The notes below the pieces were generated by a model. It was not told the DNA's origin, ran no database searches, and saw nothing but the letters and a program-made list of their open reading frames with translations. A program made the translations under genes and the position numbers. Shown here piece after piece: positions 33 to 47,045 of a stretch of DNA of 64,000 nucleotides. The DNA lies in contig OZ243950.1 of NCBI GenBank assembly GCA_965214545.1, positions 132,813-196,812 on the forward strand. Reading direction: 5' to 3'. Position 1 is the first letter of the stretch. Each line of letters starts with the position of its first letter. Source of the DNA: an uncultured candidatus Porisulfidus sp. (GTDB lineage: Bacteria; Pseudomonadota; Gammaproteobacteria; Poriferisulfidales; Poriferisulfidaceae).

Positions 33-1343
33 GTGGCGCCGCCCAAAGCTTCACCGTTCGCCGAGTTGCGCCAACGCCTGCTGTTCGTCGTGGGCGCGCT
101 GATCGTCTATCGCATTGGCACCTACATCCCGGTGCCGGGCGTGGACCCCAATGCGCTGGCCCGCTTCTTCGAACAGCAAAGCGGCACCATCATCGACCTG
201 TTCAACATGTTCTCGGGCGGTGCGCTGGAGCGCCTCAGCATCCTGGCGCTCGGCATCATGCCGTACATCTCGGCCGCGATCATCATGCAGTTGATGACGG
301 CCGTGATTCCAAGCCTCAAGGAATTGCGCAAGGAAGGGGAGCAGGGGCGGCGGCAGATCACCCAGTACACCCGCTACGGCACCCTGGCCCTGGCCACGTT
401 CCAGGCCGGCGGCGTGTCGGTGGCGCTGCAAAGCCAGGGCATCGCGCTCTACACCGGCGCCGGCTTCGCCGTCACCGCCATCATCACCCTGGTGACCGGG
501 ACCATGTTCCTGATGTGGCTGGGCGAGCAGATCACGGAACGCGGCATCGGCAACGGGATCTCCTTGATCATCTTCACCAGCATCGTCGCAGGCCTGCCGA
601 CTGCGGTCGGCGGCACCCTGGAACTGGCCAGCACCGGCGAACTGTCGTCCGCGCTGGTGGTGTTCCTGTTCGCCCTGGTCCTGGCCATTACCGCATTCGT
701 CGTGTTCGTCGAGCGGGGGCAGCGCCGGATCACAGTCAACTACGCCCGGCAGCAACAGGGCCGGCATGTCGCCATGCAGTCGACGCACCTGCCGTTCAAG
801 CTCAACATGGCCGGCGTCATCCCGCCGATTTTTGCCTCCAGCATCATCCTGTTCCCGGCCACCTTCGGGCAATGGGCCGGCTCGGCTGAGGGCATGGGCT
901 GGCTGCGCGACCTGTCGTCCACCCTGGGGCCGGGGCAGCCGCTGTATGTGCTGTTCTACGCGCTCGCCATTGCCTTCTTCTGTTTTTTCTATACCGCGTT
1001 GGTGTACGACTCCAAGGACACCGCGGACAACCTGAAACGCTCCGGCGCGTTCATCCCGGGCATCCGCCCGGGTGCGCAGACCGCCCGTTACATTGACACT
1101 GTGATGACCCGCCTGACCGCGGTCGGTGCCTTGTATATCGTGTTCGTGTGCCTGCTGCCCGAATTCCTGATCCTGGGCCTGAGCGTCCCGTTTTATTTCG
1201 GCGGGACTTCGCTGCTGATCATCGTGGTGGTGGTGATGGATTTCATTGCCCAGCTGCAGACACACCTGATGTCGCATCAGTACGAAGGGCTGCTGAAGAA
1301 AGCCGAGGCACGGGGCATGCGTTCCCGCAGCCTCCTGCGATGA
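33..1343 (+). CDS. secY: Preprotein translocase subunit SecY (complete, GTG start)
   Basis: 436-aa ORF. The N-terminal [14 protein letters not shown]...PGV and the internal [26 protein letters not shown] and [29 protein letters not shown] blocks align with E. coli SecY along the whole length. The preceding TAA at 27-29 follows a GGAG, consistent with the end of rplO. Confidence 0.95.
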
Positions 1344-1355
1344 GAGGAGAATCCC

Positions 1356-1469
1356 ATGAAAGTCCAGGCTTCCGTCAAACGAATCTGCCGTCACTGCAAG
1401 ATTGTGCGCCGCAACGGCGTGGTCCGCGTGATCTGCAAGATTCCCCGCCACAAGCAGCGTCAGGGCTGA
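1356..1469 (+). CDS. rpmJ: 50S ribosomal protein L36
   Basis: 37-aa [40 protein letters not shown] with the C-x2-C...C-x-H zinc ribbon typical of L36. Sits between secY and rpsM as in the canonical spc/alpha junction. Too short for the ORF track. Confidence 0.9.
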
Positions 1470-1506
1470 TGCGGTAGAATACATCCCTTTACGCGCACGA
1501 AGAATC

Positions 1507-1863
1507 ATGGCACGAATTGCAGGCGTCAATCTCCCCGATCACAAGCACACGGTGATCGCGTTGCAGTCCATCTTTGGCGTGGGGCAAAACCGGGCGTCCG
1601 CGATCTGCGCGGCCTGTGCGGTGGATCCGGCGGAGAAGCTCGGCAGCCTCAGCGAGGCGGAGCTCGGCGTGTTGCGCGAGGCGGTGGGGAAGTACACCAT
1701 TGAGGGCGACCTGCGCCGCGAGACCGCCATGAGCATCAAGCGCCTGATGGACCTCGGCTGCTACCGGGGGGTGCGCCACCGGCGCAAACTGCCGCTGCGC
1801 GGCCAACGAACCCGAACCAACGCACGCACCCGCAAGGGCCCGCGTCGCCCCATCCGCAAGTAA
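1507..1863 (+). CDS. rpsM: 30S ribosomal protein S13
   Basis: 118 aa starting [26 protein letters not shown] with an Arg/Lys-rich C-terminus. Canonical position in the alpha operon. Confidence 0.95.
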
Positions 1864-1866
1864 ACT

Positions 1867-2274
1867 ATGGCCGCTCCCAAATCCAAAACCAAGACCGCGA
1901 CCCGGGCCCGGAAGAAAATCCGCCGGACCCTGACCGACGGGATCGCGCACATCCGCGCCTCGTTCAACAACACGATCGTGACCATCACCGACCTGCAGGG
2001 CAACACCCTATGCTGGGCGACATCCGGAGGCTCCGGCTTCAAGGGCTCCCGCAAAAGTACGCCGTTCGCCGCCCAGGTGGCCGCGTCGCGCGTCGGCAAG
2101 GAAGCCCAGGAATTCGGGATCCGCAACCTGGAAGTCCGGGTGCGCGGGCCGGGACCGGGCCGTGAGTCGGCCATGCGCGCCTTGAATGCAAGCGGTTTTC
2201 GGATCACCAACATCCGGGACATCACCCCGGTTCCGCACAACGGCTGCCGCCCGCCGAAGCGGCGCCGCGTCTGA
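1867..2274 (+). CDS. rpsK: 30S ribosomal protein S11
   Basis: 135 aa. The motif [16 protein letters not shown]...[18 protein letters not shown] is diagnostic for S11. Confidence 0.95.
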
Positions 2275-2284
2275 GGGCAGGACC

Positions 2285-2914
2285 ATGGCACGCTATCTCG
2301 GACCCCGATGCAAGCTCATGCGGCGCGAGGGCACCAATCTGGAGCTCAAGTCGCCGGTGCGCGAACTGGACAAGAAATGCAAGCTCGACGTGCCGCCGGG
2401 CAGCAAGGGCGGGCGCGGCGGTCGCCGCGGGCGCATCTCCGACTACGGCTTGCAGTTGCGCGAGAAGCAGAAGCTGCGCCGCCTGTACGGGGTGCTGGAG
2501 CGGCAGTTCCGCAACTATTACAAGAAGGCGTCGCAGGCCAAGGGATCGACCGGCGACAACCTGATGCGCCTGCTGGAGTGCCGGCTGGACAACGTGGTGT
2601 ACCGGATGGGTTTCGGTACGACCCGGGCGGAATGCCGCCAGATCGTCTCGCACAAGGGCATCGTGGTGAACGGCACCGTGGTCAACATCCCGTCGTATTC
2701 GGTCGAAGCTGGCGACGTGGTCGCCGTGCGCGAGAAAATGCGGGAACAGGTGCGGATCAAAGATGCAATCGGAATCGCCAAGCAGCAAGGCCTGCCGGAC
2801 TGGGTGGAGGTCGACCTCGAGAAGCTCGAAGGGACCTTCAAGCAGCCTCCGACGCGTGACGAGGTTTACCGGGAAGTCAACGACTCTCTTGTCGTTGAGT
2901 TCTATTCGAAATAA
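2285..2914 (+). CDS. rpsD: 30S ribosomal protein S4
   Basis: The in-frame ATG at 2285 gives [23 protein letters not shown], the canonical S4 N-terminus, and a 209-aa product. The longer ORF from 2186 is an upstream extension overlapping rpsK. Confidence 0.93.
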
Positions 2915-2932
2915 CCCTGAGAGGACTGGAGA

Positions 2933-3928
2933 ATGCTGAGCAGCGAACTGATGGTACCCCGCGTGGTGGAAGCCAAGTACACGGCCGGCCGCGAGGCGCG
3001 GGTGGTGTTGGAGCCGATGGAGCGGGGGTTCGGGCACACAATTGGAAACGCACTGCGCCGGATCCTGTTGTCGTCCATCCCGGGCTCGGCCATCACCGAG
3101 GTCGAGATCAAGGGCGTCAAACACGAGTACGACACGCTCGACGGGGTGCAGGAAGATGTCGTCGACATCCTGCTCAACCTCAAGGGTATCGCCATTCGCA
3201 TGCATGAACGGGTCAAAGCCGACTTGCAGCTGCAGAAGAGCGGCCCGGGGGTGGTGTGCGCGGGCGACATTGATCTGGGCCATGATGTGGAGGTGGCGAA
3301 CCCGGACCACGTGATCGCACACCTGACCGATACCGGCTCGCTGGATATGCGGCTGAAGATCGAGCGGGGTCGCGGCTACGTCCCGGTCCCGGCACGCCGG
3401 CGCGACGAACAGGAACATTCAATCGGCACCCTGCTGCTGGATGCGAGTTTCAGCCCGATCCGGCGGGTGGCCTATCACGTGGAGAACACTCGCGTGGAGC
3501 AACGCACCGATCTGGACAAGCTGGTGCTGAATTTGGAGACCAACGGCACCGTCGAGCCGGAAGAGATCATCCGCATGGCCGCGGTCATCCTGAGCGAACA
3601 GCTGTCGGTCCTGGTGGGCCTCGAAGGCGAGGTGATGCGCCCGGTCCCGACGCATACGACCGAGGTCGACCCGGTCTTCAAATTGCCCATCGACGAGTTG
3701 GAGCTGGGCGTTCGCTCGATCAACAGCCTCAAGCAGGAAAACATCTTCTTCGTGGGCGACCTGGTGCAGAAGGACGAGGAAGAGCTGATGAAGCAGACGC
3801 CGAACATCGGGGTGAAGACGGTCACGGAAATCAAGCAGGCGCTGGCAGAACGCGAACTGACCTTGGCCATGACGATCGAGAACTGGCCTCCTGCCGACCT
3901 GGTGCGCGGACGCACACCGCTGTTCTGA
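2933..3928 (+). CDS. rpoA: DNA-directed RNA polymerase subunit alpha
   Basis: 331 aa. The N-terminal domain motif [29 protein letters not shown] and the C-terminal domain motif [22 protein letters not shown] are both present. Confidence 0.96.
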
Positions 3929-3938
3929 GGGATTTGCC

Positions 3939-4361
3939 ATGCGCCACCGCAAGGCCGGCCGCCGCCTGAACCGCACCTCGGCACACCGCCGCGCCATGTT
4001 TCGCAACATGGCCGTGTCGTTGCTGCAGCATGAGGGGATTCACACCACCTTGCCGAAGGCCAAGGAATTGCGCCGGGTCGTCGAGCCGCTGATCACGCTG
4101 GCCGGGGAAGACACGCTGGCGCATCGCCGCCGCGCATTCGACAAGTTGCGTGACCGGCAGATCGTCGGCAAGTTGTTCACCGAACTGGGTCCGAAATACA
4201 AGGACCGTCCCGGAGGCTATCTCCGGGTTCTCAAGAACGGCTACCGCCCCGGGGACAAGGCGCCGATGGCGTATGTTGAACTGGTTGACCGGGCGGCCGG
4301 CACGGATTCGGAAATGGAGCCCCCGGCACTCGAAGCCTCCGAAATCGCCAAGGCGACATAA
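3939..4361 (+). CDS. rplQ: 50S ribosomal protein L17
   Basis: 140 aa starting [25 protein letters not shown]. It is the last gene of the alpha operon. Confidence 0.95.
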
Positions 4362-7435: not shown

Positions 7436-8683
7436 TCATCGTTCCCACAGCTCCGTGAACGGGACGGCAAGCATGCGCTTGTCTTTCATCGGAAGAATGT
7501 CTTGCCCGTTGTAGAGCACGATCCCTTGCTCGAAATCCTTCCCGCATTGATTGGCAAGCCTCGTCAGGCCTCGCCCATCATCGGAGGACAGCGAAGCCGC
7601 TGCCTTGACTTCGATTCCCCAAGTTCTGCGTCCCTGTGTCATCACCACGTCGACCTCGATCTGTTCGTTTTCGCGGTAATGCCAGAAACGCAATTCCGGA
7701 TCCGACCAGGCGGCTTGGGCGAGGAGTTGCTGGAGTACAAAAGATTCCAAGAGGTGGCCCATGTCGCCCCGGTTGTTGATCCAGTCCTCGGCTTTCAGGC
7801 CCGCCAAGGTCGCGGCAAGCCCGCTGTCCAGCAGGTGAATCTTCGGGGACTTGATGAGTCTCTTGCCCGTATTGCGGTGCCAGGCCGGCAAGCGCCGTGC
7901 CAGGAAAATTCTCTCAAGGACTGCGACATAGTGTTCAATAGTCTCTTTGCGTAAGCCGATCTCCCTAGCCAGGTTGGCAACATTGAAGACCTGCGCGTTG
8001 CGCAAGGCAAACAGTTCCAGTAGCCGGGCCAACTTATGCGCCTTCCTGATCTGCGCCACCTCCCTGACGTCCCGCTCGATGATATTACGCAAATACTGGC
8101 GATGCCATTTCCGGGCGAACCCAGGCTTCCGGGCTAGGGCGTCAGGGTACCCGCCCGCCACCATCCGCTTCGCCACAGCCAGACCGGAAGATTCGCTCCG
8201 AGGCCGGAGGCGGGGCGTCAGGGCACCGTCCATGAAGTCGCGCAGGAAGCGGCCAGCTTTGTGCTCTTTTTCTGCTTCCGTCAGTGGTTGCAGCTGTACG
8301 ATTTCCATTCGTCCCGCGAGCGATTCGGAGACTTTTGGAATCAGCAGCGGATTGGCTGATCCGGTCAGCAGGAAACGCCCCGGTCGCCGGTCTCTGTCTA
8401 CGCTCAATTTAATGGCAGAAAGCAGTTCCGGTGTCCGTTGCACTTCGTCGAGGGTGACGGGGTCTGGCAGGAATTCCATAAAACCTTCAATATCCGACAC
8501 GGCGGAGTTGTAGTGTTTCACGTCATCTAGGCTGAAAAAGGCACGGCTTGGGGCGAGTTCTTGGACAAGCGTGGTTTTTCCGCTCTGCCGGGGCCCTACG
8601 ATGTATACGACGGGCATATCCAAAAGCGACTCGCGAATGATCGGAGCAATCAGCCGTGGGTATCGAGTTGTGGCGGAAATCAT
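7436..8683 (-). CDS. AAA+ superfamily ATPase of the DUF4143/COG1373 type
   Basis: 415 aa with a Walker A motif (VGPRQSGKTT) near the N-terminus and a C-terminal region typical of the COG1373 'predicted ATPase (AAA+)' family. The gene is about 57% GC against about 65% in its neighbours. It sits between uvrA and the MFS gene; the Pseudomonas uvrA-MFS-ssb arrangement has no such gene. Confidence 0.6.
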   Translation of the reverse strand: MISATTRYPRLIAPIIRESLLDMPVVYIVGPRQSGKTTLVQELAPSRAFFSLDDVKHYNSAVSDIEGFMEFLPDPVTLDEVQRTPELLSAIKLSVDRDRRPGRFLLTGSANPLLIPKVSESLAGRMEIVQLQPLTEAEKEHKAGRFLRDFMDGALTPRLRPRSESSGLAVAKRMVAGGYPDALARKPGFARKWHRQYLRNIIERDVREVAQIRKAHKLARLLELFALRNAQVFNVANLAREIGLRKETIEHYVAVLERIFLARRLPAWHRNTGKRLIKSPKIHLLDSGLAATLAGLKAEDWINNRGDMGHLLESFVLQQLLAQAAWSDPELRFWHYRENEQIEVDVVMTQGRRTWGIEVKAAASLSSDDGRGLTRLANQCGKDFEQGIVLYNGQDILPMKDKRMLAVPFTELWER

Positions 8684-14472: not shown

Positions 14473-16014
14473 ATGTACGGGCGGGGTCCGCTTAGGTTCT
14501 GGCGCGGACTGGGCAGCTTGCCGTGGGGCCACGCCGCCGCCTTGGCCGGTGGCATCATCGCGTCATTCGGATTCGCGCCCTATGCCTTTCGACCGGCGCT
14601 CTGGGCGGGATTGATCCTGTTCTTCTGCACGCTGTATTCAGGCTCGGCTTCGACGGCCATGAAGCGGGGCGGGCTGTTCGGTCTGGGGTATTTCGGTTTC
14701 GGGGTCTACTGGGTTTACTACAGCCTTTATCACTACGCCAGTACGCCGCTGTGGTTGTCTCTCGCACTGGCTGCGCTCCTGGTGGCATACCTGTCTTTGT
14801 ACCCGATGCTGGCGGTTGGGCTGGCGGCACGCTGGCTGCCGCGCGGCATCCGACGCCTGACGGGCGCAGCCGTGCTGCTGGCCGGGGCGGAATGGCTGCG
14901 CGGGATCCTGCTCACGGGCTTCCCATGGATTCTGATCGGGCAGGGCAGCCTGGACAGCCCTTGGGCCGGTTACCTGCCACTGCTGGGGACGCATGGAACC
15001 GGCTTGTTGCTCCTGCTGGCGGCGGGGTGGACGGCGGTATGGCTGCGCCGGCCGCTTTCCAGGCATGCCGTTTGGCTGGGCATCGTCCTGTTGACGGCAG
15101 GGGGTGGAGAAGCCCTGCGAAACTTTCCCTGGAGCACGCCTTCCGGCGAGCCCATTGAAGTCGCCCTGATTCAACCCAGCTTGAATCCGGAGGCGCGCTG
15201 GCGGGCAAAAAACCGGGGCTTCATCAAGGAAACCTATTGGGAGATGACGCAGCAGGTCGCCGAGACCCCGCTGATCATCTGGCCCGAGGCGGCCATTCCG
15301 CAGTACTACAGCCGGGTCGAAGATTTTTACCAAAGCCTTCAAGCCGAGGTCCTGGGCGACGATACGAGTTTGGTCACAGGCGTGTTCTATCGCAAGGGGG
15401 AGGAATCCGGGCCGCACAACGGGCTGATGAACCATCAGACGGGACAGCGCTATGGGAAACGCCGACTGGTCCCTTTCGGGGAATACTCCCCGCTGGAAGA
15501 CTGGCTGGGTCCGCTGTATGAACGGATTCGTTTCAGGATGCGGGCATTGGAGCCTACCGGGGACCGGCCCTTGCTCCAGGTGCGGGGGCACCCGGTCGGA
15601 GTGACGGTCTGCTACGAGTCGGTCTACCCATCGATTACCCGTCTGGCTTTTCCGGAGGCCGCCTATCTGGTGAACGTGAGCAATGACGCATGGTTCGGGA
15701 CGAGCCGGGCGCCCTGGCAGCATCTGGAATCCAGCCGCCTGCGCGCGGCAGAGACCGCCCGGGAACTCCTCCGAGCCGCGAGTACCGGGGTGACGGCAAT
15801 CATTGGCGCGGACGGGACCCTCCGCGCGGTTACCCCTCAATTCACGACCGCGATTCTGGAAGGCGAGGTGCAACCCCGGGAAGGGCTGACGCCGTATGCC
15901 CGGTTCGGAGAATGGACGTCGGCTCTTCTGGGTTTATTGATTCTTATGTTTTGCTTTTATAAGAATGATAAATCAGAACATTTATTGTTTTCAAAAAAAC
16001 GTTTTCGGCGCTGA
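14473..16014 (+). CDS. lnt: Apolipoprotein N-acyltransferase
   Basis: 513 aa. A multi-TM N-terminus is followed by a CN-hydrolase domain (VTVCYESVYP...NVSNDAWFG). The AT-rich, low-complexity C-terminal 25 codons (FYKNDKSEHLLFSKKRF) are unusual. Confidence 0.9.
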   Translation: MYGRGPLRFWRGLGSLPWGHAAALAGGIIASFGFAPYAFRPALWAGLILFFCTLYSGSASTAMKRGGLFGLGYFGFGVYWVYYSLYHYASTPLWLSLALAALLVAYLSLYPMLAVGLAARWLPRGIRRLTGAAVLLAGAEWLRGILLTGFPWILIGQGSLDSPWAGYLPLLGTHGTGLLLLLAAGWTAVWLRRPLSRHAVWLGIVLLTAGGGEALRNFPWSTPSGEPIEVALIQPSLNPEARWRAKNRGFIKETYWEMTQQVAETPLIIWPEAAIPQYYSRVEDFYQSLQAEVLGDDTSLVTGVFYRKGEESGPHNGLMNHQTGQRYGKRRLVPFGEYSPLEDWLGPLYERIRFRMRALEPTGDRPLLQVRGHPVGVTVCYESVYPSITRLAFPEAAYLVNVSNDAWFGTSRAPWQHLESSRLRAAETARELLRAASTGVTAIIGADGTLRAVTPQFTTAILEGEVQPREGLTPYARFGEWTSALLGLLILMFCFYKNDKSEHLLFSKKRFRR

Positions 16015-16030: not shown

Positions 16031-16777
16031 CTACAGGGTGCGGCTGTAGGCCAGCGCCAGGCGCAGGTCGCGGCCCTGCGGCAAATCCGGCAGTTCGGCT
16101 CGGGGCTCACCCAATGATTCCAGCAATCTCAAGGTGGTTTCCAAGCAGACCGGCTCGGTTCTGGAAGAACGACTGCACAAGGCGCTCCGGAAGCCTAGGT
16201 AGTCCGGGTGGGCAGGCAGGAAATACTGCGCGGATTCAACGTTCAGCCGGCCGGCCAGGCCGCACAGCAGTCCGGCTTCCCGGGTGGCTTGCACCCAGCG
16301 TGTCGCTTGAGGCAGGTCCATGTGTTTGTCCAGGGCTCCGGAATGTTTATCGGCAGTGTCCAGCATCAGTCCGGCGAATCCTGCCGCCCGGGCGGGTTCG
16401 ATCCATTGCATCGGGTTGATTTCAGGGCGGTCTGCGAACAGTACCGCAACCGCTTGGGCTGGAGCTTCGATCGCGGCGCGGAATTCGGGCAGCAAGGATT
16501 GTTGCGATGGGCAGGAGAAACCAATCTTGACGAAATCGACACCCTCCCGGGACAACCGGCAGGCCTGCTCCACCACGTTCCGGTCATCGGCAGACCCGGC
16601 AGCGGCACTGACGTGGCGCCGGTGTTTGACCTGGTCGACGACTTGGCGGACCACCGTGGGGTCTGCGGCACCCAACGCGCCCCGTGCAGGATCTTTCAGA
16701 TCCAGAATCGCGATCGGGGTTTGGAGCAGCAGTGCCGCTTCCCCGGTATCGCGCACGCTTCCGAGGATACGGGTCAC
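16031..16777 (-). CDS. MfnB-like (5-formylfuran-3-yl)methyl phosphate synthase homolog (DUF556)
   Basis: ILDLKDPARGALGA, GVDFVKIGF, GLMLDTADKHSGAL and LLCGLAGRL align block-for-block with archaeal MfnB (IIDVKNPKEGSLGA, GADYIKVGL, VAMLDTAIKDGKTL and LKCALAGSI). The proposed start is the GTG at 16777, which forms a GTGA overlap with the upstream gene's stop. The ORF-track ATG start at 16834 is the alternative. Confidence 0.7.
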   Translation of the reverse strand: MTRILGSVRDTGEAALLLQTPIAILDLKDPARGALGAADPTVVRQVVDQVKHRRHVSAAAGSADDRNVVEQACRLSREGVDFVKIGFSCPSQQSLLPEFRAAIEAPAQAVAVLFADRPEINPMQWIEPARAAGFAGLMLDTADKHSGALDKHMDLPQATRWVQATREAGLLCGLAGRLNVESAQYFLPAHPDYLGFRSALCSRSSRTEPVCLETTLRLLESLGEPRAELPDLPQGRDLRLALAYSRTL

Positions 16778-17349
16778 GGCGCGGCGTCCTTGAGCGCGAA
16801 GTGTTCGTGGACTCGTTCCATCAGCCAGTTCCATGCCTCCCGCTCAATCTCCCCGGCGGTTTTCTCGATTGCGATGTCGAGGTATTCGATTTCGCCGCGT
16901 ATTTTCTCATCCGACAACCGGTTCAGCCGGCTGACCAGGATCGCGAGTTCAATGACGGCCGCCTGCGCCCGGTTATAGCCCTGGAAAGGCGCATGGGCGG
17001 CCTCGTGCACGATCTTGCAGGTGAACGTGGGGCGCACCGGGTCGTCGTCGAAGCCTTCCACTTCGACTTCCGCATGCGACAGGCAATTCGCCAGCCGCTG
17101 GCAGGGAAGGATCTCGGCGCTGGTCAGGGGCCAGTCATGGCGTCCGGTCAGGCATCCGGCGTAGACGCGGACATCGTCCGGGCGATTCACGACCGCGTAA
17201 CCCTCGCGCTGGAGGTTTTCCAAGGTCTGCGAGGGGCGGAACGGTTTGAGTAGTAATCTTCGCTCTGCACAGTGCACGCCCATGGGCGCGATATGCGTCT
17301 GATCGTCGGCACCGCGCGTCGTCACGATGCTCTCCAGGATTTTCGGCAT
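16774..17349 (-). CDS. DUF447-family protein (H4MPT/methanofuran-associated ORF of methylotroph-type clusters)
   Basis: A 191-aa product starting MPKILESIVTTRGADDQTHIAPMGV resembles the DUF447 family that co-occurs with H4MPT-pathway genes. Its ATG overlaps the upstream gene's stop (TGATG). The longer ORF to 17457 is an in-frame upstream extension. Confidence 0.6.
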   Translation of the reverse strand: MPKILESIVTTRGADDQTHIAPMGVHCAERRLLLKPFRPSQTLENLQREGYAVVNRPDDVRVYAGCLTGRHDWPLTSAEILPCQRLANCLSHAEVEVEGFDDDPVRPTFTCKIVHEAAHAPFQGYNRAQAAVIELAILVSRLNRLSDEKIRGEIEYLDIAIEKTAGEIEREAWNWLMERVHEHFALKDAAP

Positions 17350-18764
17350 CAGGAGGGTTTCCGGTGTTTGATTGCGTTCTTGTGTTTTTGACGGGTCGGG
17401 CCGACTTCCCGGAATGCCGACAGGTCCTTGGCGGATTCCGTCACGGCACAGCCCCACAGGAACTCTTCATCCTGCTCGTAACGTTTGCCGAGCTGCCATG
17501 CGATCTGGGCCCGTGTCAATTCAATGCCCAGGTAGAACAGGTGGCCGGGGTCGTCGTCCAGGTCCAGGTCCGCATAGAAGTCAAGCGGGTCCGTGTGAAT
17601 GCGTTCGCCGTCCCGATTGTACAGGTGAACACCGTCTTCGGCGACCCGGATGCGGAAATTGGGGTCCTTCACCTGGGCGGCCAACGCGGCGATTTCCTCT
17701 GGGCTGTACGGGAAGGGGTGGCGCTCGTGCAGCATCATCAACTGGTCGTCGATGCCCTTCGGGGGGATTCCGTGGGCGGCCGCGGCCCGCATGATTCTCC
17801 GGGCACGGTCCGCTTCGCGCAATGAGGTCCGGCAGTGTTCGCTAACCTGGGTCGTCAGCGCATACTGGATTTTCAGCTCGGAGATCAATCCGAACAGCAG
17901 GGCGTTCATGCCGGCCGTGTCCGCATGGGTCAATTCGGTCAGGTTGCCGATGCCCATCAGGATCTGAATATCCGGATAGCGGCGGCGAAGATCGACGTAG
18001 CGGGCGAGGGAGTCGGCGCAGCCGAAATGGACCGGGTCGAGAATGGGGTCGGCGATGAATGCCTGGTCCTTCTCCAGACAGCGGTCGATACAGGCGTACA
18101 GGGAGTCGAGGTCCGTATTGCTGTCGCCGATCAGGATCGGGACGGATTCGACTTCGTCGGCCACCCACAGGCTGTCCGGGCGAAGGCTCAAGAGGAAGTC
18201 TGCCCCGGCCTGTCCTCCGGCCAGCAGGTCTTGCGTCTCCAGCGAGTCGACGCTCACCACGAAACCTTCCTGCTTGAGCATCTGCACGGTTTCGGTCAGA
18301 TGCGGGAATTCCACGCCCGGCAGACAGCCGACGTCGATGATGTCGGCGCCGTCTTCCTGATAGCGGCGGGCCTCGGCCAAAATCGCGTCGGGGCTGAGAT
18401 TGGGCGCCTCGGTAATTTCGGCGAAGATTCGGACATCGTAGCGGGTCAGGTCTTCCGCCATCGCGGCCCGGCCGAAATAGACTGGAAGGTCCTTGAGTTC
18501 ATCGGGCCCCCGTTCGACCGGCACCCCGAACTGCGCTTTCAGCGGTTCAAGATCCCCGCGCACCCGGCCGGGAAGCAGGATGCGGTCGATTCCGGGAGGG
18601 AGTTCGAGCCGCTTCTGAATCAACGTGGGGGTCATCAGTGCAGCAACACTCGCGCCGACCTGGTGGACTTCGTAGTCGAAATCCGTCGGCTGCATGGATT
18701 CCAGCACGCGATGCAGGCTCTGCTCGGCAAGCTTTCCGGTCAGGAAAAGGATTTTTTCGGTCAT
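17349..18764 (-). CDS. Dihydropteroate-synthase-like pterin-binding protein with extra N- and C-terminal domains (H4MPT-biosynthesis type)
   Basis: 471 aa. The central region (GADIIDVGCLPG...ILIGDSN...GIGNLTE) looks like a DHPS/pterin-binding TIM barrel. The 120-aa N-terminal and 110-aa C-terminal extensions are typical of the methylotroph/archaeal DHPS-like protein of methanopterin synthesis. Confidence 0.65.
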   Translation of the reverse strand: MTEKILFLTGKLAEQSLHRVLESMQPTDFDYEVHQVGASVAALMTPTLIQKRLELPPGIDRILLPGRVRGDLEPLKAQFGVPVERGPDELKDLPVYFGRAAMAEDLTRYDVRIFAEITEAPNLSPDAILAEARRYQEDGADIIDVGCLPGVEFPHLTETVQMLKQEGFVVSVDSLETQDLLAGGQAGADFLLSLRPDSLWVADEVESVPILIGDSNTDLDSLYACIDRCLEKDQAFIADPILDPVHFGCADSLARYVDLRRRYPDIQILMGIGNLTELTHADTAGMNALLFGLISELKIQYALTTQVSEHCRTSLREADRARRIMRAAAAHGIPPKGIDDQLMMLHERHPFPYSPEEIAALAAQVKDPNFRIRVAEDGVHLYNRDGERIHTDPLDFYADLDLDDDPGHLFYLGIELTRAQIAWQLGKRYEQDEEFLWGCAVTESAKDLSAFREVGPTRQKHKNAIKHRKPS

Positions 18765-18981
18765 GGATTCGGGCTCAAGGCTTGAATTTTAGCAAGGGGG
18801 TTTATTTGCTCGCCTGACTCTTTCCGGAAGTCGCCACACAATCGGCAAAATTGGGCTTCACAGAAGTGTATGGAATCCGATTTTCGAATTTGCTACAGTA
18901 ACCGGTCATGTACGAGATTCGCTCCAGTGCCCAAAATTCCGGTGCGGATCATTCCTCTCGAACCTCAGCGCACCCGCAGAC

Positions 18982-20736
18982 TTGAGCAGCATCGTTTTGA
19001 AGACCCAGCCTCAACCCCAAATTACCCGCAGGAACGCCTCTCCAGAAGCGCTGGATGCGCTCCAGGACCTGCCGCCGTTGCAACGGCGGGTGTTCGCCCA
19101 ACGTGGGGTCCGCGATCTGGATGAGATCGATCTGTCGTTGCGGCAGTTGCATCCGGTCAGCGAATTTCCGGCCTGCATCCAGGCAGCAGAATTGCTGTAT
19201 TCCGTCATGCGCGAAGACGGACGCATCCTGCTGGTCGGTGATTATGACGCGGACGGTGCAACCGGCGTGGCCGTCGCCACCCGCTGCCTGCGTGCGATGG
19301 GCTACCCGCAGGTGGCATTTCTGGTTCCGGACCGTTTTCGTCATGGCTATGGGTTTTGTCCGGAGTTGATGGAGGACGTCGAGAAAGAAGATCCCACGTT
19401 AATCGTGACCATCGACAACGGGATGTCGAGCCAGGCCGCCGTGGCCGAGGCCCGCAAGCGCGGAATCCGGGTGTTGATCACCGACCACCACCTTCCGGGC
19501 GACGACCTGCCCGAGGCCGACTGCATCGTCAATCCGAACAGCCCGCCCGGCAGTTTCGCGAGTACGGCCCTGGCCGGCGTCGGGGTCGTGTTCTACGTGA
19601 TGCTGGCGTTGCGCCAGCGTTTGCAGCAGGAAGACTGGTTTGCCAGCAAGGGAATCGAAGTCCCGAACATGGCTCAGTTTCTGGACCTGGTGGCGCTGGG
19701 GACGGTGGCCGATGTCGTTCCGTTGGACCGGAACAACCGGATCTTGGTGGAAAACGGGCTGCGGTGCATCCGGAAGGGCCGAGGAGCCCCCGGCATTGTG
19801 TCCCTGCTTCGCTACGGCAAGCGGGACCCCCGGCAGGCCAGCAGCACGGACCTGGCCTTCGCGGTGGGGCCGCGCATCAACGCGGCTGGCAGGATGGAAG
19901 ACATTGCGATCGGAATCCGGTGCCTCCTGGCGGAAGGCCGCGTCGAGGCCCATGAGCTCGCCGAGCAATTGCACCAGATCAACCGCCGGCGCCGGGACAC
20001 GGAAGGGTCGATGCACGCCGAGGCCCTGCGCGAGATCGAGGAACTGTCTCTGGAGGCCGACTCGATGATGAGCGTGTGCCTGTACCGGCCGAATTGGCAC
20101 GAGGGCGTGGTGGGCATCATCGCGTCGCGAATCAGGGAGCGGTATGGATTGCCGGCCATCGTGTTCGCACAGAGCCAGGACAAGCTTTTGAAAGGGTCCG
20201 GGCGTTCGATCCCGGGTCTGAACCTCAGGGACGCGCTGGTCGATGTGGAACAGACGGATCCTGATTTGATGCAGCGTTACGGGGGTCATGCAATGGCGGT
20301 CGGCCTGACCTTGCATGAAGGTGGGCTGGAGCGATTCCAGGCTTTGCTTGAGCAGGCCGTCTCGAAGGCCTTGGGCGGCGTACGGCCCAGCCAGACCATT
20401 GAGACGGATGGCGAACTGGCCAGCGAGGAGATAACGCTTGAAAATGCGGAGTTCGCGGCGTGCGGCCATCCTTGGGGCAAAGATTTCCAGGCGCCGCTGT
20501 TCGAAGGCGAGTTCGAGGTTCGGGGCCACCAGACTTTCAACGATGCCCACACCCGGTTTGATCTCAATCCGGTTGGGCATCCGGAACGCCGCATCAAGGC
20601 CATGGCGTTTTCTCACGACCGCTTCGACTGGGATCCGGAGAGTGTCCGCTTCAGGCTGGTGTACGAGTTGGGCGTGGATGACTACCAGGGGCGCCGGTCC
20701 TGCATGTTGAATATCCAACACATCGAGTCGCTCTAG
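18982..20736 (+). CDS. recJ: Single-stranded-DNA-specific exonuclease RecJ
   Basis: 584 aa with DHH motifs (LLVGDYDADGATG and ITDHHLPG) and a DHHA1 domain. The N-terminus matches E. coli RecJ. Confidence 0.93.
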   Translation: MSSIVLKTQPQPQITRRNASPEALDALQDLPPLQRRVFAQRGVRDLDEIDLSLRQLHPVSEFPACIQAAELLYSVMREDGRILLVGDYDADGATGVAVATRCLRAMGYPQVAFLVPDRFRHGYGFCPELMEDVEKEDPTLIVTIDNGMSSQAAVAEARKRGIRVLITDHHLPGDDLPEADCIVNPNSPPGSFASTALAGVGVVFYVMLALRQRLQQEDWFASKGIEVPNMAQFLDLVALGTVADVVPLDRNNRILVENGLRCIRKGRGAPGIVSLLRYGKRDPRQASSTDLAFAVGPRINAAGRMEDIAIGIRCLLAEGRVEAHELAEQLHQINRRRRDTEGSMHAEALREIEELSLEADSMMSVCLYRPNWHEGVVGIIASRIRERYGLPAIVFAQSQDKLLKGSGRSIPGLNLRDALVDVEQTDPDLMQRYGGHAMAVGLTLHEGGLERFQALLEQAVSKALGGVRPSQTIETDGELASEEITLENAEFAACGHPWGKDFQAPLFEGEFEVRGHQTFNDAHTRFDLNPVGHPERRIKAMAFSHDRFDWDPESVRFRLVYELGVDDYQGRRSCMLNIQHIESL

Positions 20737-32515: not shown

Positions 32516-33141
32516 GTGCCGGTCTCGCCGGGGTACAGGGCGCGCAGCAGATGCGGCAGGAATTTCCGGGCGGTTTCGTCGACGTTCCAGCTCACCCCGC
32601 ATTCCCGCAAGCTCGTGGCCTCGAGTTCCGGGTGGCCGCAGATGTCGATGTGGCGGAACAGGCCCAGGTCCGGATGGACATTCAGTGCGAGCCCATGGGA
32701 ACTTCGGGCCCGGCTGACCCGCAGGCCGACCGACATGATCTTCTTGCCTCCCACATACACCCCGGGCATGCCGTTTTCCCGGCGGGCGGGCGTCCGGGCT
32801 TCCTGCAGCAGGGCCAACACCGCATGTTCCAGGCGCTCGATCAGTGCGCGAACCCCCAGGCGCATCCGGTGCAGGTCCAGCAGGGTATAGACGACCAGCT
32901 GGCCGGGCATATGGCAGGTCACCTGGCCGCCGCGGCTGCTGCGGACGACCGGCAGCGGGCCCGGGGAATGGATGTGGGAGGGGTCGGCGCCCACCCCGAG
33001 AGTCAGGACGCCCGGGTGCTGCAACATCCAGATCTCGTCGGCGCTGTTCTCGTTCCTGCGTTCGGTCTGCCGGCGCATGGCTTCGGCGCAGGGTTCGTAG
33101 TCGTACAACTCCCAGTGCCGGATTCGGGGTGCGGGAATCAC
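32512..33141 (-). CDS. lipB: Octanoyltransferase LipB
   Basis: 209 aa starting [23 protein letters not shown]. Contains the [23 protein letters not shown]...[12 protein letters not shown] blocks, including the catalytic Lys and Cys. Confidence 0.92.
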
Positions 33142-33974
33142 GAGGCGGTGCAGAATTCGTTGTACCAGGTGCGGACGCGCTGCGTGACCGGGCCGGCAGC
33201 CGGATGGCCTACCGGCTGGCCGTCCAGTTCGATCACGGGCACGACTCCGCGGGTGGAGCCGGTGATCCAGATTTCCTCGGCACGCCGCAATTCATCGACG
33301 CGCAACAGGCCTTCCTGGCATTCCACTCCGTTCTCGCGCATCAGTTCCAGCACCAGCTTCCGGGTGATTCCGGGTAGGATCCGGGGGCTGAGTGCCGGTG
33401 TCCGGACTTGTCCGTCCACCACGGCGAAGATATTGCTGGTCGCGCCTTCCATGACTTCTTCTCCCCGATACAGGAGGGCTTCTCCCGCCTGTCGATCAAT
33501 CGCCGCCTGCGTCGCGAGGACGGTTTCCAGCAACATAAGAGATTTGATGTGGCAGCGTCCCCATCGCTGGTCTTCGCAGGTGATGGCAGAGATCGGGCCG
33601 GGCCTTGTCGGCAGGGGCTGCGCCATGGCGAAAACGGTGGGCCGTCCGTCCAGGAAGTGCTTGCGGAAAGCTTCCCCATCGGGGATGACGCCGCGGGTCA
33701 CCTGGATGTACACGAAGCATTCATCCGGGCTCTGTTCGATCAGGCGGCCGCAGATTTCCCGCCAGGTGGATTCTTCCGGCACGTTGTGGAGGTGGATTGC
33801 AGCCAGGCTGCTTTCCAGGCGTTTCAGGTGGTCGTCCAGGCAGCGCGGGCGCCTGCAATGGACAGGAATCAGCTCGTAGACACCGTCGGCAAACAGGAAG
33901 CCGTGATCCATCACCGGGATCGTGAGTCCCTCAAGGGGGCGATATTCGCCGTTGTAGTAGGCCGGGATCGACAT
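33138..33974 (-). CDS. Class IV aminotransferase (D-amino-acid / branched-chain type)
   Basis: 278 aa with fold-type IV motifs ([42 protein letters not shown]). It sits between dacC and lipB, where ybeD is found in E. coli. Confidence 0.75.
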
Positions 33975-41616: not shown

Positions 41617-42108
41617 ATGAAGAAGATGTTGACTGGAATCTGGGGAATAGCCCTTATTGCCCTTTCTGCGATAGTTTTTGTGCCGCCTGTTGCGGCAGAT
41701 GAATGTAGTCATGAAGTTGAGGCAGATCCCGTTGAGGCAAAGGAAGGAAACAATGCCGTATTCAGGATCAAGGCCCAGTGCTCAGGGCCCTGGCCGCCAG
41801 GGTTCAAGTTTCGCTACAACTTCCAGACTCAAGACGACAGCACGGGTCGGAATGACTACAAGTGGAGATCCGGGTCTCACGTTTTTTCCCGAGGTAGCAG
41901 CACAACCAGGCGGGTTACCGTTAAGACCTACGATGACGATGAGTGCGAAGGTGACGAGGAATTCAAGTTAAACTTTGAACTGCAGGGTATGGTGAAGGGT
42001 ATTTGGATGGATTGGGCTGGAGGCCACCGTGGGCTGCCCGGCAGTTTCTCTATCAGAGGCGTGATCGAAGATCAAACATCGGGGTGTGGGGGCGCGAGTA
42101 GTTCTTGA
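41617..42108 (+). CDS. Small secreted Calx-beta-domain protein
   Basis: 163 aa with a signal peptide (MKKMLTGIWGIALIALSAIVFVPPVAA). DYKWRSGSHVFSRGSSTTRRVTVKTYDDDECEGDEEFKLNFEL matches the C-terminal consensus of Calx-beta domains. Local GC is visibly lower than the surroundings. Confidence 0.6.
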   Translation: MKKMLTGIWGIALIALSAIVFVPPVAADECSHEVEADPVEAKEGNNAVFRIKAQCSGPWPPGFKFRYNFQTQDDSTGRNDYKWRSGSHVFSRGSSTTRRVTVKTYDDDECEGDEEFKLNFELQGMVKGIWMDWAGGHRGLPGSFSIRGVIEDQTSGCGGASSS

Positions 42109-42175: not shown

Positions 42176-42266
<91 letters not shown>

Positions 42267-42657: not shown

Positions 42658-44001
<1,344 letters not shown>

Positions 44002-44024
44002 GGCGCGCCCTCGGCCGAGGGCCG

Positions 44025-45329
44025 TCAAAACTGCTCTTCTTCGGTGGAGCCGGTCAGTGCCGTGACGGAAGATTTCCCGCCCTGGATGACGGTGGTCACA
44101 TCATCGAAGTAGCCAGCCCCGACTTCCTGCTGGTGGCTGACGAACGTATAGCCCCGGTCTGCCGACGCGAACTCCGGTTCCTGGACTTTCTCCACGTAAT
44201 GCTTCATGCCTTCGTCGCCGGCATAGTCGTAGGCGAGGTCAAACATGTTGTACCACATGCTGTGGATGCCGGCCAAGGTGATGAACTGGTACTTGTAGCC
44301 CATGGCGGACAATTCGCGTTGGAACTTGGCGATGGTGGCATCGTCCAGATTCTTCTTCCAGTTGAAGGAGGGGGAGCAGTTGTACGCCAACAGCTGGTTT
44401 GGGTACTCCTTGCGCAGGGCTTCCGCGAACGCCCGGGCAAACTCCAGGTCCGGGGTGCCGGTTTCGCACCAGACCAGGTCCGCATAAGGCGCATAGGCCA
44501 AGCCGCGCGAGATGGCCTGGTCCAGGCCGTTGCGTACGCGGTAGAAACCTTCGGAGGTTCGCTCGCCGGTCAGGAATGGCTTGTCGTTCTCGTCGAAGTC
44601 GGACGTCACGAGGTTGGCGGCTTCCGCATCAGTGCGGGCCAGCACCACGGTCGGGACCCCCATCACGTCGGCGGCCAGCCGGGCCGCGGCCAGTTTCTGG
44701 ACGGCTTCCTGGGTCGGCACCAACACTTTCCCACCCATGTGGCCGCACTTCTTGACGGCGGCCAACTGATCCTCGTAGTGGACTCCGGCAGCGCCGTTGT
44801 TGATCATGTTCTTCATCAACTCGAAGGCATTGAGCACGCCACCGAAACCGGCTTCGGCATCTGCCACGATCGGGGCGAAGTAGTCGACGAACCCGTCGTC
44901 GCCGGGATTGGTGCCACGCGCCCATTGGATCTCGTCGGCGCGCTTGAACGCGTTGTTGATGCGGCGCACCACGGTCGGCACCGAGTCGTAGGCGTACAAC
45001 GACTGGTCCGGGTACATGGTCTCGGAGGTATTGGCATCAGCGGCGACCTGCCAGCCGGACAGGTAGATGGCTTCGATACCGGCCTTGACCTGCTGCACTG
45101 CTTGTCCGCCGGTCAGGGCTCCGAGGCAGTTGACGTAACCCTTGCGCGCCTCGCCGTTGACCAGTCGCCAGAGCTTCTCGGCCCCTTCTGTCGCGGTGGT
45201 GTTGGCAGGCACGCGCGAGCCGCGCAGGCGGACGACGTCTTCTGCAGAGTAGCCGCGGCGCACGTCGCTCCATCGGGGGTTGCTGTCCCAGTCTTTCTGC
45301 AGGGCTTCAATTTGCTTTTTTCGATCCAC
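44025..45329 (-). CDS. aceA: Isocitrate lyase
   Basis: Collinear with E. coli AceA. Contains the catalytic KKCGHMGGK motif, and the C-terminus [18 protein letters not shown] matches [18 protein letters not shown]. The start is assigned to a GTG at 45329, with a GAGGA about 7 nt upstream, giving (M)[13 protein letters not shown] like E. coli MKTRTQQIEELQKEW. The ORF-track ATG start at 45416 adds about 29 non-homologous residues. Confidence 0.9.
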
Positions 45330-45590
45330 TTTAAGAGTCCTCAACTCATTGATCAGGGCAACCTCGCCCGGCGCGATGCGGGATCGCGTGCCGGAGATGC
45401 AAGGATGAATCCGCAATTTTAACAGAAAAGGAATTGGCCTGCCGAAAAAACGGCGAGAATCCGTCTCTGCTTCCAGCGGTGCGCGACTGGTCTGGAGGAA
45501 GCAAGCTGGCCCTGAGACTAGGTTTCCGGAAAATATCGTGAGGGACCGGGTGCGTCGCTCCGCCCCGGGTTGGCCTGTTGTCCGACAAGG

Positions 45591-46613
45591 TCAATGGCTG
45601 CGCTTTTCCCCCGGCTTCTCGGAGTGGCCATAGCATTTGCGGCATTTCTTGGGTTTGGGGTCGCTTTCGGACACGACACCATCCTCGTTCGTGTCGTGGC
45701 GCGAAAATTTCTTCTGTCCTGAAGCCAGGTATTCCCCGAAACTGATTTCTCCATTCTCGTCTGTGTCCATCGTCCCGAAGCGCGCCTTCGACCGCTTCAG
45801 TTTTTTCTCCCGGGCCTTCTCGATTGCCTTATCCAGGCGATGGCCGAATTCCAGTGCGTACTCTTCCGGGCTTAGCGTCTCGTCGCCGTTCTCGTCTGTC
45901 CGGTCAAAGTCGGCGCGGCGCCGGGCGCTGAATTCCTCGTGTGTGATCGCGCCGTCTCCATCGGTATCGTACTTCCGCATCATCCCTTTTTTGCTGTGGG
46001 TGCTGGGCATGTGGAGGACCCGCTTTGCGTGTTTTTCGCACATGCCTTTGTGTTTGCCGTGCTTGTGCCGCTTGTGGTCGTGGCCGGACTTGTGGTCGTG
46101 GTCGTGGCCGCTCTTCCCCTTGCCGGGGTAGCCCTTACATCCCTTTTTGCAATGTCGTTTGGGGCGCGGGTCTTCTGCATTGATGATGCCATTTTCGTCC
46201 CCATCAAAGCGCTGGAAGCTGCGCTCGCCGGATGCCTTGTACTCCGCCCACTCGATCTGTTCGTTGCCGTCTTCGTCCAAGGTGTCAAAGCGGCGGTGGG
46301 ACTGCCGGGTGTGCCGCTTGCGTTCCTTTTTGATTTTCTTGTCCAGGCGGTCGGCGCGCGCCTGCATGCGCTCGTCGACGTCGACTGAGCCATTACCGTT
46401 TTTGTCAATCAGGTCGTAACGGGACCGACGGGCCTGCTCGAATTCCTCCGCGGTCACTTGGGCATCGCCGTTTTGGTCGTACCGCTGAATGAAGGACCCC
46501 ATTCCATGGTGCCCCCCGCGGTGTCCTTTCTCGTGTTCTCCAGAGTGTCCTGCAAACGCGAGGCCTGCAGCGGTCGTCAACATGATCGCCGACGCTAAAA
46601 ATCGTGATTTCAT
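45591..46613 (-). CDS. Periplasmic EF-hand repeat protein with a His-rich metal-binding core
   Basis: Signal peptide, then at least 8 EF-hand-like loops (DQNGDAQVTAEEF, DKNGNGSVDVDE, DEDGNEQIEWAEY, DGDENGIINAED, DTDGDGAITHEEF, DENGDETLSPEEY, DTDENGEISFGEY, DTNEDGVVSESD). In the middle sits a His/Lys-rich block (KSGHDHDHKSGHDHKRHKHGKHKGMCEKH). Confidence 0.7.
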   Translation of the reverse strand: MKSRFLASAIMLTTAAGLAFAGHSGEHEKGHRGGHHGMGSFIQRYDQNGDAQVTAEEFEQARRSRYDLIDKNGNGSVDVDERMQARADRLDKKIKKERKRHTRQSHRRFDTLDEDGNEQIEWAEYKASGERSFQRFDGDENGIINAEDPRPKRHCKKGCKGYPGKGKSGHDHDHKSGHDHKRHKHGKHKGMCEKHAKRVLHMPSTHSKKGMMRKYDTDGDGAITHEEFSARRRADFDRTDENGDETLSPEEYALEFGHRLDKAIEKAREKKLKRSKARFGTMDTDENGEISFGEYLASGQKKFSRHDTNEDGVVSESDPKPKKCRKCYGHSEKPGEKRSH

Positions 46614-46853: not shown

Positions 46854-46929
46854 GCGGGAATAGCTCAGTTGGTAGAGCGTAACCTTGCCAAGGTTAAGGT
46901 CGCCGGTTCGAACCCGGTTTCCCGCTCCA
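46854..46929 (+). tRNA. glyW: tRNA-Gly (GCC)
   Basis: GCGGGAATAGCTCAGTTGGTAGAGCGTAACCTTGCCAAGGTTAAGGTCGCCGGTTCGAACCCGGTTTCCCGCTCCA gives a cloverleaf with anticodon GCC. Confidence 0.9.
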
Positions 46930-46971
46930 GTTCCCATTGCGATCCGATCGCCGGGTCAGAGTATAAGCAGG

Positions 46972-47045
46972 GGCTGAGTGGCAGAGTGGTTATGCAGCGG
47001 CCTGCAAAGCCGTGGACGCCGGTTCGATTCCGACCTCAGCCTCCA
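46972..47045 (+). tRNA. cysT: tRNA-Cys (GCA)
   Basis: GGCTGAGTGGCAGAGTGGTTATGCAGCGGCCTGCAAAGCCGTGGACGCCGGTTCGATTCCGACCTCAGCCTCCA. The acceptor pairs GGCTGAG/CTCAGCC and the anticodon loop is CT-GCA-AA. Confidence 0.88.

Follow-up and report, generated by a model that had tools for sequence, protein, structure and literature searches.

A probable orf19-orf20-orf22 cofactor module of methylotroph type in the sponge-associated gammaproteobacterium Candidatus Porisulfidus

Three genes on the minus strand of contig OZ243950.1, from an uncultured Candidatus Porisulfidus sp., lie between lnt and recJ in the map of open reading frames (ORFs) of a 64,000-nucleotide stretch, the whole of which is referred to here as the window. 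These genes (g1, g2 and g3) are read as one translationally coupled operon and as the Candidatus Porisulfidus copy of the proteobacterial orf19-orf20-orf22 module, the products of which would help to build dephospho-tetrahydromethanopterin (dephospho-H4MPT) and methylofuran for H4MPT-linked formaldehyde oxidation. For this reading as a whole, cofactor role included, a probability of about 0.75 is estimated. The gene module is already known and no new system is described; what is new is the Porisulfidus lineage, in which to our knowledge the trio has not been discussed before. The features of the locus, with the source of each assignment, are as follows.

14473-16014, plus strand: lnt (ORF map)
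16031-16777, minus strand: g3, 248 amino acids, GTG start, homolog of orf22 in the MfnB family, a 4-(hydroxymethyl)-2-furancarboxaldehyde phosphate (4-HFC-P) synthase triosephosphate isomerase (TIM) barrel (Pfam)
16774-17349, minus strand: g2, 191 amino acids, homolog of orf20, DUF447_N plus DUF447_C (Pfam)
17349-18764, minus strand: g1, 471 amino acids, homolog of methylotroph orf19, DUF6513 plus a TIM barrel of the dihydropteroate synthase (DHPS) fold plus a small C-terminal domain (Pfam, TIGR00284, AlphaFold/Foldseek)
17463-17702, minus strand: g1 residues about 355-434, C-terminal domain with a weak PterinBD-DUF4346 match (sub-threshold Pfam)
17775-18434, minus strand: g1 residues about 111-330, DHPS-like TIM barrel (PDB fold matches, hhalign to E. 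coli FolP)
18501-18758, minus strand: g1 residues 3-88, DUF6513, alternating strand/helix alpha-beta fold in the model (Pfam, model secondary structure)
18765-18981, no strand: 217-bp intergenic region from which g1 and recJ diverge, putative promoter of the trio (gene map; promoter inferred)
18982-20736, plus strand: recJ (ORF map)

The genes of the trio overlap at their stop and start codons, the TGA stop of g1 (17351-17349) sharing its A with the ATG start of g2 (17349-17347) in a TGATG overlap and the TGA stop of g2 (16776-16774) lying on the GTG start of g3 (16777-16775) in a GTGA overlap, with an AGGA Shine-Dalgarno motif about 9 nt upstream of the g3 GTG. A first-pass annotation of the window had described three minus-strand genes with these two overlaps, and both were present on reading the sequence. 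It had also placed the genes convergent between lnt and recJ, which holds for lnt, with 16 bp between the stops, but not for recJ, from which the trio diverges across a shared upstream region of 217 bp. No sigma-70 consensus site was found in 18765-18981 and a promoter and terminator scan around the operon gave nothing usable. The GC content of the trio is 0.625, the same as in the rest of the window. Public gene calls on the 1,853,631-bp contig give exactly the same proteins of 471, 191 and 248 residues with the same starts, and one public protein entry (P0121) is 100% identical to g3. The public names are 'DUF6513 domain-containing protein' and 'DUF447 family protein', with relatives named '(5-formylfuran-3-yl)methyl phosphate synthase'.

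The N-terminal domain of g1 matches DUF6513 over profile positions 1-86 of 86 (residues 3-88, E 8e-37, 125.8 bits against a Pfam cutoff of 23.9; E 5e-38 when the domain was scanned alone). At the C-terminal end a PterinBD-DUF4346 match stays sub-threshold (23.2-26 bits against a cutoff of 29.6), and several g1 orthologs carry precomputed PF14251 matches. Among curated families g1 scores best with the archaeal 'dihydropteroate synthase-like protein' TIGR00284 (NCBIfam), to which it is homologous through both the barrel and the C-terminal domain (residues 111-434, profile positions 152-496 of 497). Because the pterin-binding profile call was weak, the structure of g1 was modelled with AlphaFold from 30 homologs (predicted local distance difference test, pLDDT, about 90 in the barrel) and searched against the PDB with Foldseek. 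The 50 best matches were all dihydropteroate synthases or Sul resistance enzymes, with no methyltransferase among them (E 2e-9 to 1e-7; template modelling (TM) score on the target 0.40-0.65). A weak hhalign alignment to E. coli FolP (1AJ0; probability 22%) lines up GADIIDVG, VSVDS and ILDP and, within that alignment, pairs two invariant pterin-pocket aspartates (g1 D173 with FolP D96, g1 D243 with FolP D185). Since the fold matches are to DHPS and Sul enzymes and these two aspartates are kept, while FolP N115, K221 and R255 are not evidently so in the same weak alignment, the modelled g1 is a protein of the DHPS fold yet no canonical FolP. The DHPS-like pterin-binding protein with extra N- and C-terminal domains envisaged in the first-pass annotation is recovered in this fold, in DUF6513 and in the weak DUF4346 match; at the level of profiles the DUF6513 assignment stood, whereas Pterin_bind and DUF4346 fell below their thresholds.

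The Pterin_bind family spans both DHPS and methyltransferases, which raises the alternative that g1 is a pterin-dependent methyltransferase of the MeTr/MetH branch and no synthase, with the N-terminal alpha/beta domain serving as a cofactor-binding module. The Rossmann-like strand/helix pattern of the modelled N-domain and the absence of several canonical DHPS pocket residues from the hhalign alignment would fit such an enzyme. The DHPS and Sul enzymes that make up all of the 50 best fold matches, TIGR00284 as the best curated match and a gene context of cofactor biosynthesis all stand against it, and scans of the N- and C-domains at E values as high as 10 gave no match to a B12-binding family or to any other cofactor-domain family. 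A methyltransferase identity is very improbable on this evidence, and g1 as a B12-binding protein or methyltransferase was set aside as unsupported.

The second gene, g2, is a DUF447 protein as had been proposed, matching both DUF447_N (E 4e-24, 85.4 bits against a cutoff of 24) and DUF447_C (E 2e-16, 60.5 bits against 24.8) in Pfam and showing full-length homology to PDB entries 3b5m (E 2.6e-19) and 2iml (E 5e-4). Archaeal DUF447 structures have reportedly been solved with bound flavin mononucleotide, and fused DUF447 relatives give weak matches to PNPOx-like and F420-dependent PPOX models.

The third gene was likewise expected to be MfnB-like, and g3 matches 4HFCP_synth (PF04476) far above the cutoff (E 2e-52, 178.6 bits against 22.4; residues 5-212, profile positions 2-221 of 228) and aligns to the TIM barrel of MJ1099/MfnB (4rc1) over about 200 residues (E 6e-9, about 25% identity). 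In this alignment g3 D26, K28, K84, D140 and K144 correspond to MJ1099 D25, K27, K85, D151 and K155, which we take to be the catalytic residues described by Wang et al. in 2015 and Bobik et al. in 2014, K27 being the Schiff-base lysine. All 76 outgroup homologs carry the same residue in each of the five columns, as do 43-44 of the 44 lineage clusters, the exceptions being one gap and one K-to-Q change. At the level of subfamilies g3 lies under the MfnB equivalog cut-offs of NF002575 (80.7 against 304 bits) and NF002573 (70.7 against 341 bits; NCBIfam), as do its proteobacterial orthologs (104-128 bits), and the best model is NF002576, a proteobacterial Orf22-type 'hypothetical protein' (192.4 bits, cut-off 297). 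Within the genus g3 is 75-79% identical, compared with about 92% for g1; despite this divergence the active-site residues and purifying selection are retained.

A link between the three families is provided by domain fusions. A search of g2 against 1.84 billion cluster representatives returned 919 DUF447 relatives, several of them about 500-550 amino acids long. DUF447 is followed by a C-terminal beta-ribofuranosylaminobenzene 5'-phosphate (beta-RFAP) synthase (MptG) in P0362 and P0320 (143 and 140 bits, over the TIGR00144 cutoff of 113.5) and by a beta-RFAP synthase domain under that cutoff in P0303, P0332 and P0337, with P0335 carrying a GHMP-kinase Pfam domain only, and in P0262 DUF447 is fused to 4HFCP_synth. 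FolB (dihydroneopterin aldolase) is the fusion partner of 4HFCP_synth in P0181, P0196, P0205, P0234 and L022:3111-4274, and some g3 homologs are named 'dihydroneopterin aldolase' by the Joint Genome Institute (JGI). Hydroxymethyl-dihydropterin, the product of FolB, is pyrophosphorylated and then used as a substrate by a DHPS-type enzyme. The first committed step of methanopterin synthesis is catalysed by RFAP synthase (PMC6787355). The recurrence of the fusions ties the DUF447, MfnB-like and DHPS-like families to the step at which pterin and arylamine are joined, and this network (DUF447 with beta-RFAP synthase, DUF447 with MfnB-like, MfnB-like with FolB) offers a lead for the reactions of Orf19, Orf20 and Orf22.

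The same fusions could be taken to place all three proteins in the methanopterin branch, such that the proteobacterial DUF556 protein (Orf22/NF002576), alongside FolB, the DHPS-like enzyme and DUF447, would work on the pterin-aryl core and would have furan synthesis as MfnB either as a second function or not at all. The several proteins in which 4HFCP_synth is fused to FolB, together with the JGI names, favour this, as do the fusion of 4HFCP_synth to DUF447 in P0262, with DUF447 in turn fused to beta-RFAP synthase, and the finding that all proteobacterial homologs tested match NF002576 best and not the MfnB equivalogs. Bobik et al., in 2014, are also said to have given MJ1099 roles in both methanopterin and methanofuran synthesis. 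Such fusions may however merely mirror operon neighbours of one pathway that needs both cofactors, the five MfnB active-site residues are kept in g3, and Hemmann et al. assign MfnB activity to Orf22 (PMC8141765), an activity that is needed because methylofuran contains the same furan unit. Placement of all three proteins in the methanopterin branch is regarded as rather unlikely. Equally tentative is a further proposal, that the three genes by themselves form a unit for building the aryl-pterin core of dephospho-H4MPT. DUF447 would then act directly on the product of beta-RFAP synthase or of the DHPS-like enzyme, a candidate reaction being a flavin-dependent step that reduces the ribofuranosyl group to ribityl, while the DUF556 protein would serve the pterin arm with FolB instead of, or besides, making furan, and the divergence of g3 in Porisulfidus might mark a changed substrate.

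The reading of the trio as a copy of the methylotroph module draws on its occurrence elsewhere in the Proteobacteria. In Methylosinus trichosporium the published island runs orf19-orf20-afpA-orf21-orf22 (PMC3615186). MfnB, MfnE and MfnF have homologs in Orf22, Orf21 and Orf9, respectively, and all of the 'archaeal-like' cluster genes were required for growth on methanol (PMC8141765). Because families and order match this island, the window trio is identified, by homology, as orf19, orf20 and orf22 without adjacent afpA and orf21. Among the loci compared, the Methylophilaceae (L014, L016) have the trio in the same order with a flavoprotein gene before it, and in L016 it lies apart from the genes for one-carbon (C1) enzymes. 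In the gammaproteobacterial loci L012 and L017-L019 the trio is beside recJ with an AA_kinase gene and pabB about 8 kb away, these two being the only pathway genes visible near it in L017-L019. In L026-L028 the trio is found inside one island with RimK, CitG, Fae, His_biosynth, ATP-grasp_3, Hydantoinase_A, PabB and AA_kinase, with a similar island around it in L025, and in L022 the order is a 4HFCP_synth-FolB fusion, AA_kinase, Flavoprotein, DUF6513 and DUF447, after which come Hydantoinase_A, His_biosynth, Fae, CitG, RimK, MCH, ATP-grasp and Mpt_N (MtdB). The claim that these families are typical of methylotrophs with an H4MPT pathway agrees with the presence of the same trio in Methylophilaceae and, elsewhere, beside Fae, MCH and Mpt_N. 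At L027:13858-15792 the DUF6513/DHPS-like and DUF447 parts were called as a single protein of 644 amino acids, which may be a real fusion or may result from a frameshift or faulty assembly; in L026 and L028, the sister assemblies, the two genes are separate.

Relatives in the Porisulfidus lineage were found by scanning one genome per species with g1. The closest, at 92-93% identity in g1, come from metagenome-assembled genomes (MAGs) named Candidatus Porisulfidus, 'uncultured Chromatiales' or Gammaproteobacteria, several of which are complete chromosomes of 1.6-2.0 Mb, the window chromosome being 1.85 Mb. Porisulfidus is reportedly, in the account of Lavy et al. from 2018, a sponge-associated gammaproteobacterium proposed to oxidise sulfide. 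In all close relatives the trio, in the order g3-g2-g1, converges on miaB-phoH-ybeY-corC-lnt and diverges from recJ-nadD-rsfS-maf-yhdP, and the order and chromosomal place of the trio are common to 12 Porisulfidus-type genomes and the deeper relatives L020, L021, L024 and L030. In L024 (a 1.88-Mb genome of 74% GC) the trio adjoins lnt but other genes lie on the recJ side. The divergent pair of recJ and trio is kept in gammaproteobacterial lineages with GC contents from 37% to about 60% (L012, L017, L018, L030 and the window), and this adjacency across lineages of widely differing GC argues for vertical inheritance of the trio.

The ratio of nonsynonymous to synonymous substitution rates (dN/dS) against ten relatives was 0.05-0.07 for g1, 0.04-0.09 for g2 and 0.10-0.19 for g3, compared with 0.05-0.16 for housekeeping neighbours. 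By its shared position and these ratios the trio is native, long in position and held by selection in reduced genomes. Horizontal transfer was rejected given the native GC and the recJ-trio adjacency across gammaproteobacteria of 37-74% GC, and pseudogene formation or decay was rejected as well, the frames being intact in all genomes with dN/dS at most 0.19.

In the window recJ and g1 are 217 bp apart; among sister genomes this spacer is a hot spot for insertions. They comprise a TnpB-like ORF of 419 amino acids with a small helix-turn-helix ORF (L001:8185-9742), ORFs of 1255 and 475 amino acids (L011:3506-9774), a resistance-nodulation-division (RND) efflux pair (L015:5317-9411) and an AAA_21 gene with small ORFs (L020:7596-9788). 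At L020:13060-14238 a gene of the AAA_14/DUF4143 family is inserted between g3 and lnt; a gene for an AAA_14/DUF4143 ATPase, of the same family, is also found in the window at 7436-8683.

In the proposed pathway g1 would join 6-hydroxymethyl-dihydropterin diphosphate to the arylamine beta-RFAP to give the pterin-aryl core of dephospho-H4MPT, and g2, whose split-barrel family has flavin-binding proteins as relatives, may act at the adjacent step on an RFAP-derived intermediate. As a class-I-aldolase-type TIM barrel like MfnB, g3 would make the furan precursor 4-HFC-P for methylofuran. That the genome also carries and uses the rest of the pathway, such as fae, mtdB or mtdA, mch, fhcABCD and mptG, we infer from the retention of the trio under selection, the outgroup neighbourhoods and published precedents, strong purifying selection in reduced genomes implying that the product of the trio is needed. 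Complete pathways of dephospho-H4MPT-dependent oxidation have been reported in the sponge MAG SP5GCR1 ('Chromatiales', 1.62 Mb; PMC7313196) and in the sulfur-oxidising symbiont Ca. Thiodiazotropha luna (bioRxiv 10.64898/2025.12.05.692423). As regards gene identity and pathway, the families, the module match and the fusions support the methanopterin/methanofuran reading given in the first-pass annotation.

A number of observations weigh against this reading. In g1 the Pterin_bind (PF00809) match is below the gathering threshold (20.6 bits, or 22.4 for the barrel alone, against 25.5), the TIGR00284 score of 162.5 bits is below the cutoff of 256.65, and the three FolP residues named above are not evident in the weak alignment. 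The divergence of g3 points the same way, its identity to outgroups being 35-41% compared with 45-63% for g1 and 52-60% for g2 and its NF002576 score of 192 comparing with 247-298 in outgroup orthologs (180-184 in Porisulfidus-lineage relatives), and the Ser of the LAGS motif, present in 66 of 76 other homologs, is replaced by Arg in 41 of the 44 lineage clusters (R177 in g3). Pfam scans of about 40 further ORFs gave housekeeping and mobile-element genes only, with no other H4MPT, methylofuran or C1 gene in the window. A query with the Orf21/MfnE-type kinase of L017, the nearest outgroup, gave no contig of Porisulfidus size among the best 120 of a large family and four Fae 90% clusters gave none among the members listed, both searches being insensitive. 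Finally, we know of no demonstrated enzyme activity for bacterial Orf19, Orf20 or Orf22.

Some of these observations would also fit a trio retained as a remnant after loss of the H4MPT-dependent C1 enzymes, its proteins being reused, for example, for another pterin- or furan-containing metabolite. No C1 gene is found in the window or beside the trio in any Porisulfidus-lineage locus, the genomes are reduced to 1.6-2.0 Mb, g3 is strongly diverged with its lineage-specific Ser-to-Arg change, and the kinase and Fae searches gave no Porisulfidus pathway gene among the entries listed. Those negative searches however listed no more than 120 or 15 entries, and isolation of the trio appears normal because the Methylophilaceae of L016 also keep it apart from the C1 enzyme genes. 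The strong purifying selection in reduced genomes and the informative outgroup neighbourhoods (L022, L025, L026-L028), which have fae and other pathway genes, argue further against a remnant, and it is considered improbable. The trio is preferred as part of a working route to dephospho-H4MPT and methylofuran.

If these cofactors are made, Porisulfidus probably oxidises or detoxifies formaldehyde via the H4MPT route, the formaldehyde possibly arising in the sponge from methanol, methylated amines or sulfur compounds. Porisulfidus occurs in numerous sponge species and has been described as oxidising sulfide. A capacity for C1 metabolism would widen its metabolic role in the holobiont and would fit the pattern reported for other host-associated Gammaproteobacteria.

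Elsewhere in the window the left end (33-4361) holds the tail of a ribosomal protein operon (secY, rpsM, rpsK, rpsD, rpoA, rplQ), where the antisense ORFs exceed the genes in length, so that a listing of longest ORFs misleads. The window also has three tRNA genes, Ser-GGA, Gly-GCC and Cys-GCA (42176-42266; 46854-47045), and directly after two of them lies a gene for a predicted AAA-ATPase with a PD-(D/E)XK nuclease domain (47461-49026). Isocitrate lyase (44025-45416) is directly upstream of isocitrate dehydrogenase (42658-44028), with genes nearby for an EF-hand protein that looks secreted (45591-46613) and for a small protein, at 41617-42108, that matches Calx-beta weakly and below the threshold; EF-hand and Calx-beta domains are commoner in eukaryotic proteins. 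A class IV aminotransferase (Aminotran_4) gene adjoining lipB/lipA (33138-33974) could encode a D-amino-acid aminotransferase or an aminodeoxychorismate lyase of p-aminobenzoate (pABA) synthesis.

Compared with known proteins, g1 has the DHPS fold and the GADIIDxG, SVD and LDP motifs of FolP and TIGR00284, and is homologous to the latter across the barrel and C-terminal domain, whereas it differs by the extra DUF6513 N-domain and by scores under the Pterin_bind and TIGR00284 thresholds. From FolP it differs further in the three pocket residues, which are not evidently kept, and in the arylamine, which is expected to be beta-RFAP and not pABA. The DUF447 proteins known from structural genomics (3b5m, 2iml, 2ptf and 2nr4) have no function assigned to any of them. 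MfnB (MJ1099, EC 4.2.3.153, PDB 4rc1/4u9p) has PF04476, the TIM barrel and the D-x-K, K and D-T-x-x-K residues in common with g3, which at only about 25% identity is far under the MfnB equivalog cut-offs and groups with the proteobacterial NF002576. SP5GCR1 and Ca. Thiodiazotropha luna are, like Porisulfidus, host-associated Gammaproteobacteria, the former with a small genome and the latter a sulfur oxidiser, although both belong to other lineages, SP5GCR1 has a GC content of 44.7% against 57-63% here and for Porisulfidus the rest of the pathway is predicted. A close parallel in gene content is the orf19-22 island of Methylorubrum extorquens and Methylosinus trichosporium OB3b. Its hosts are methylotrophs whereas the window host is a sponge associate described as oxidising sulfur, and the window genes include a far more diverged g3 and have neither afpA (flavoprotein) nor orf21 (AA_kinase, the MfnE homolog) between or beside them. 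The island nevertheless has the same three families in the same order (DHPS-like, DUF447, DUF556) and is compact and co-transcribed, often lying apart from the C1 enzyme genes as do the window trio and that of the Methylophilaceae.

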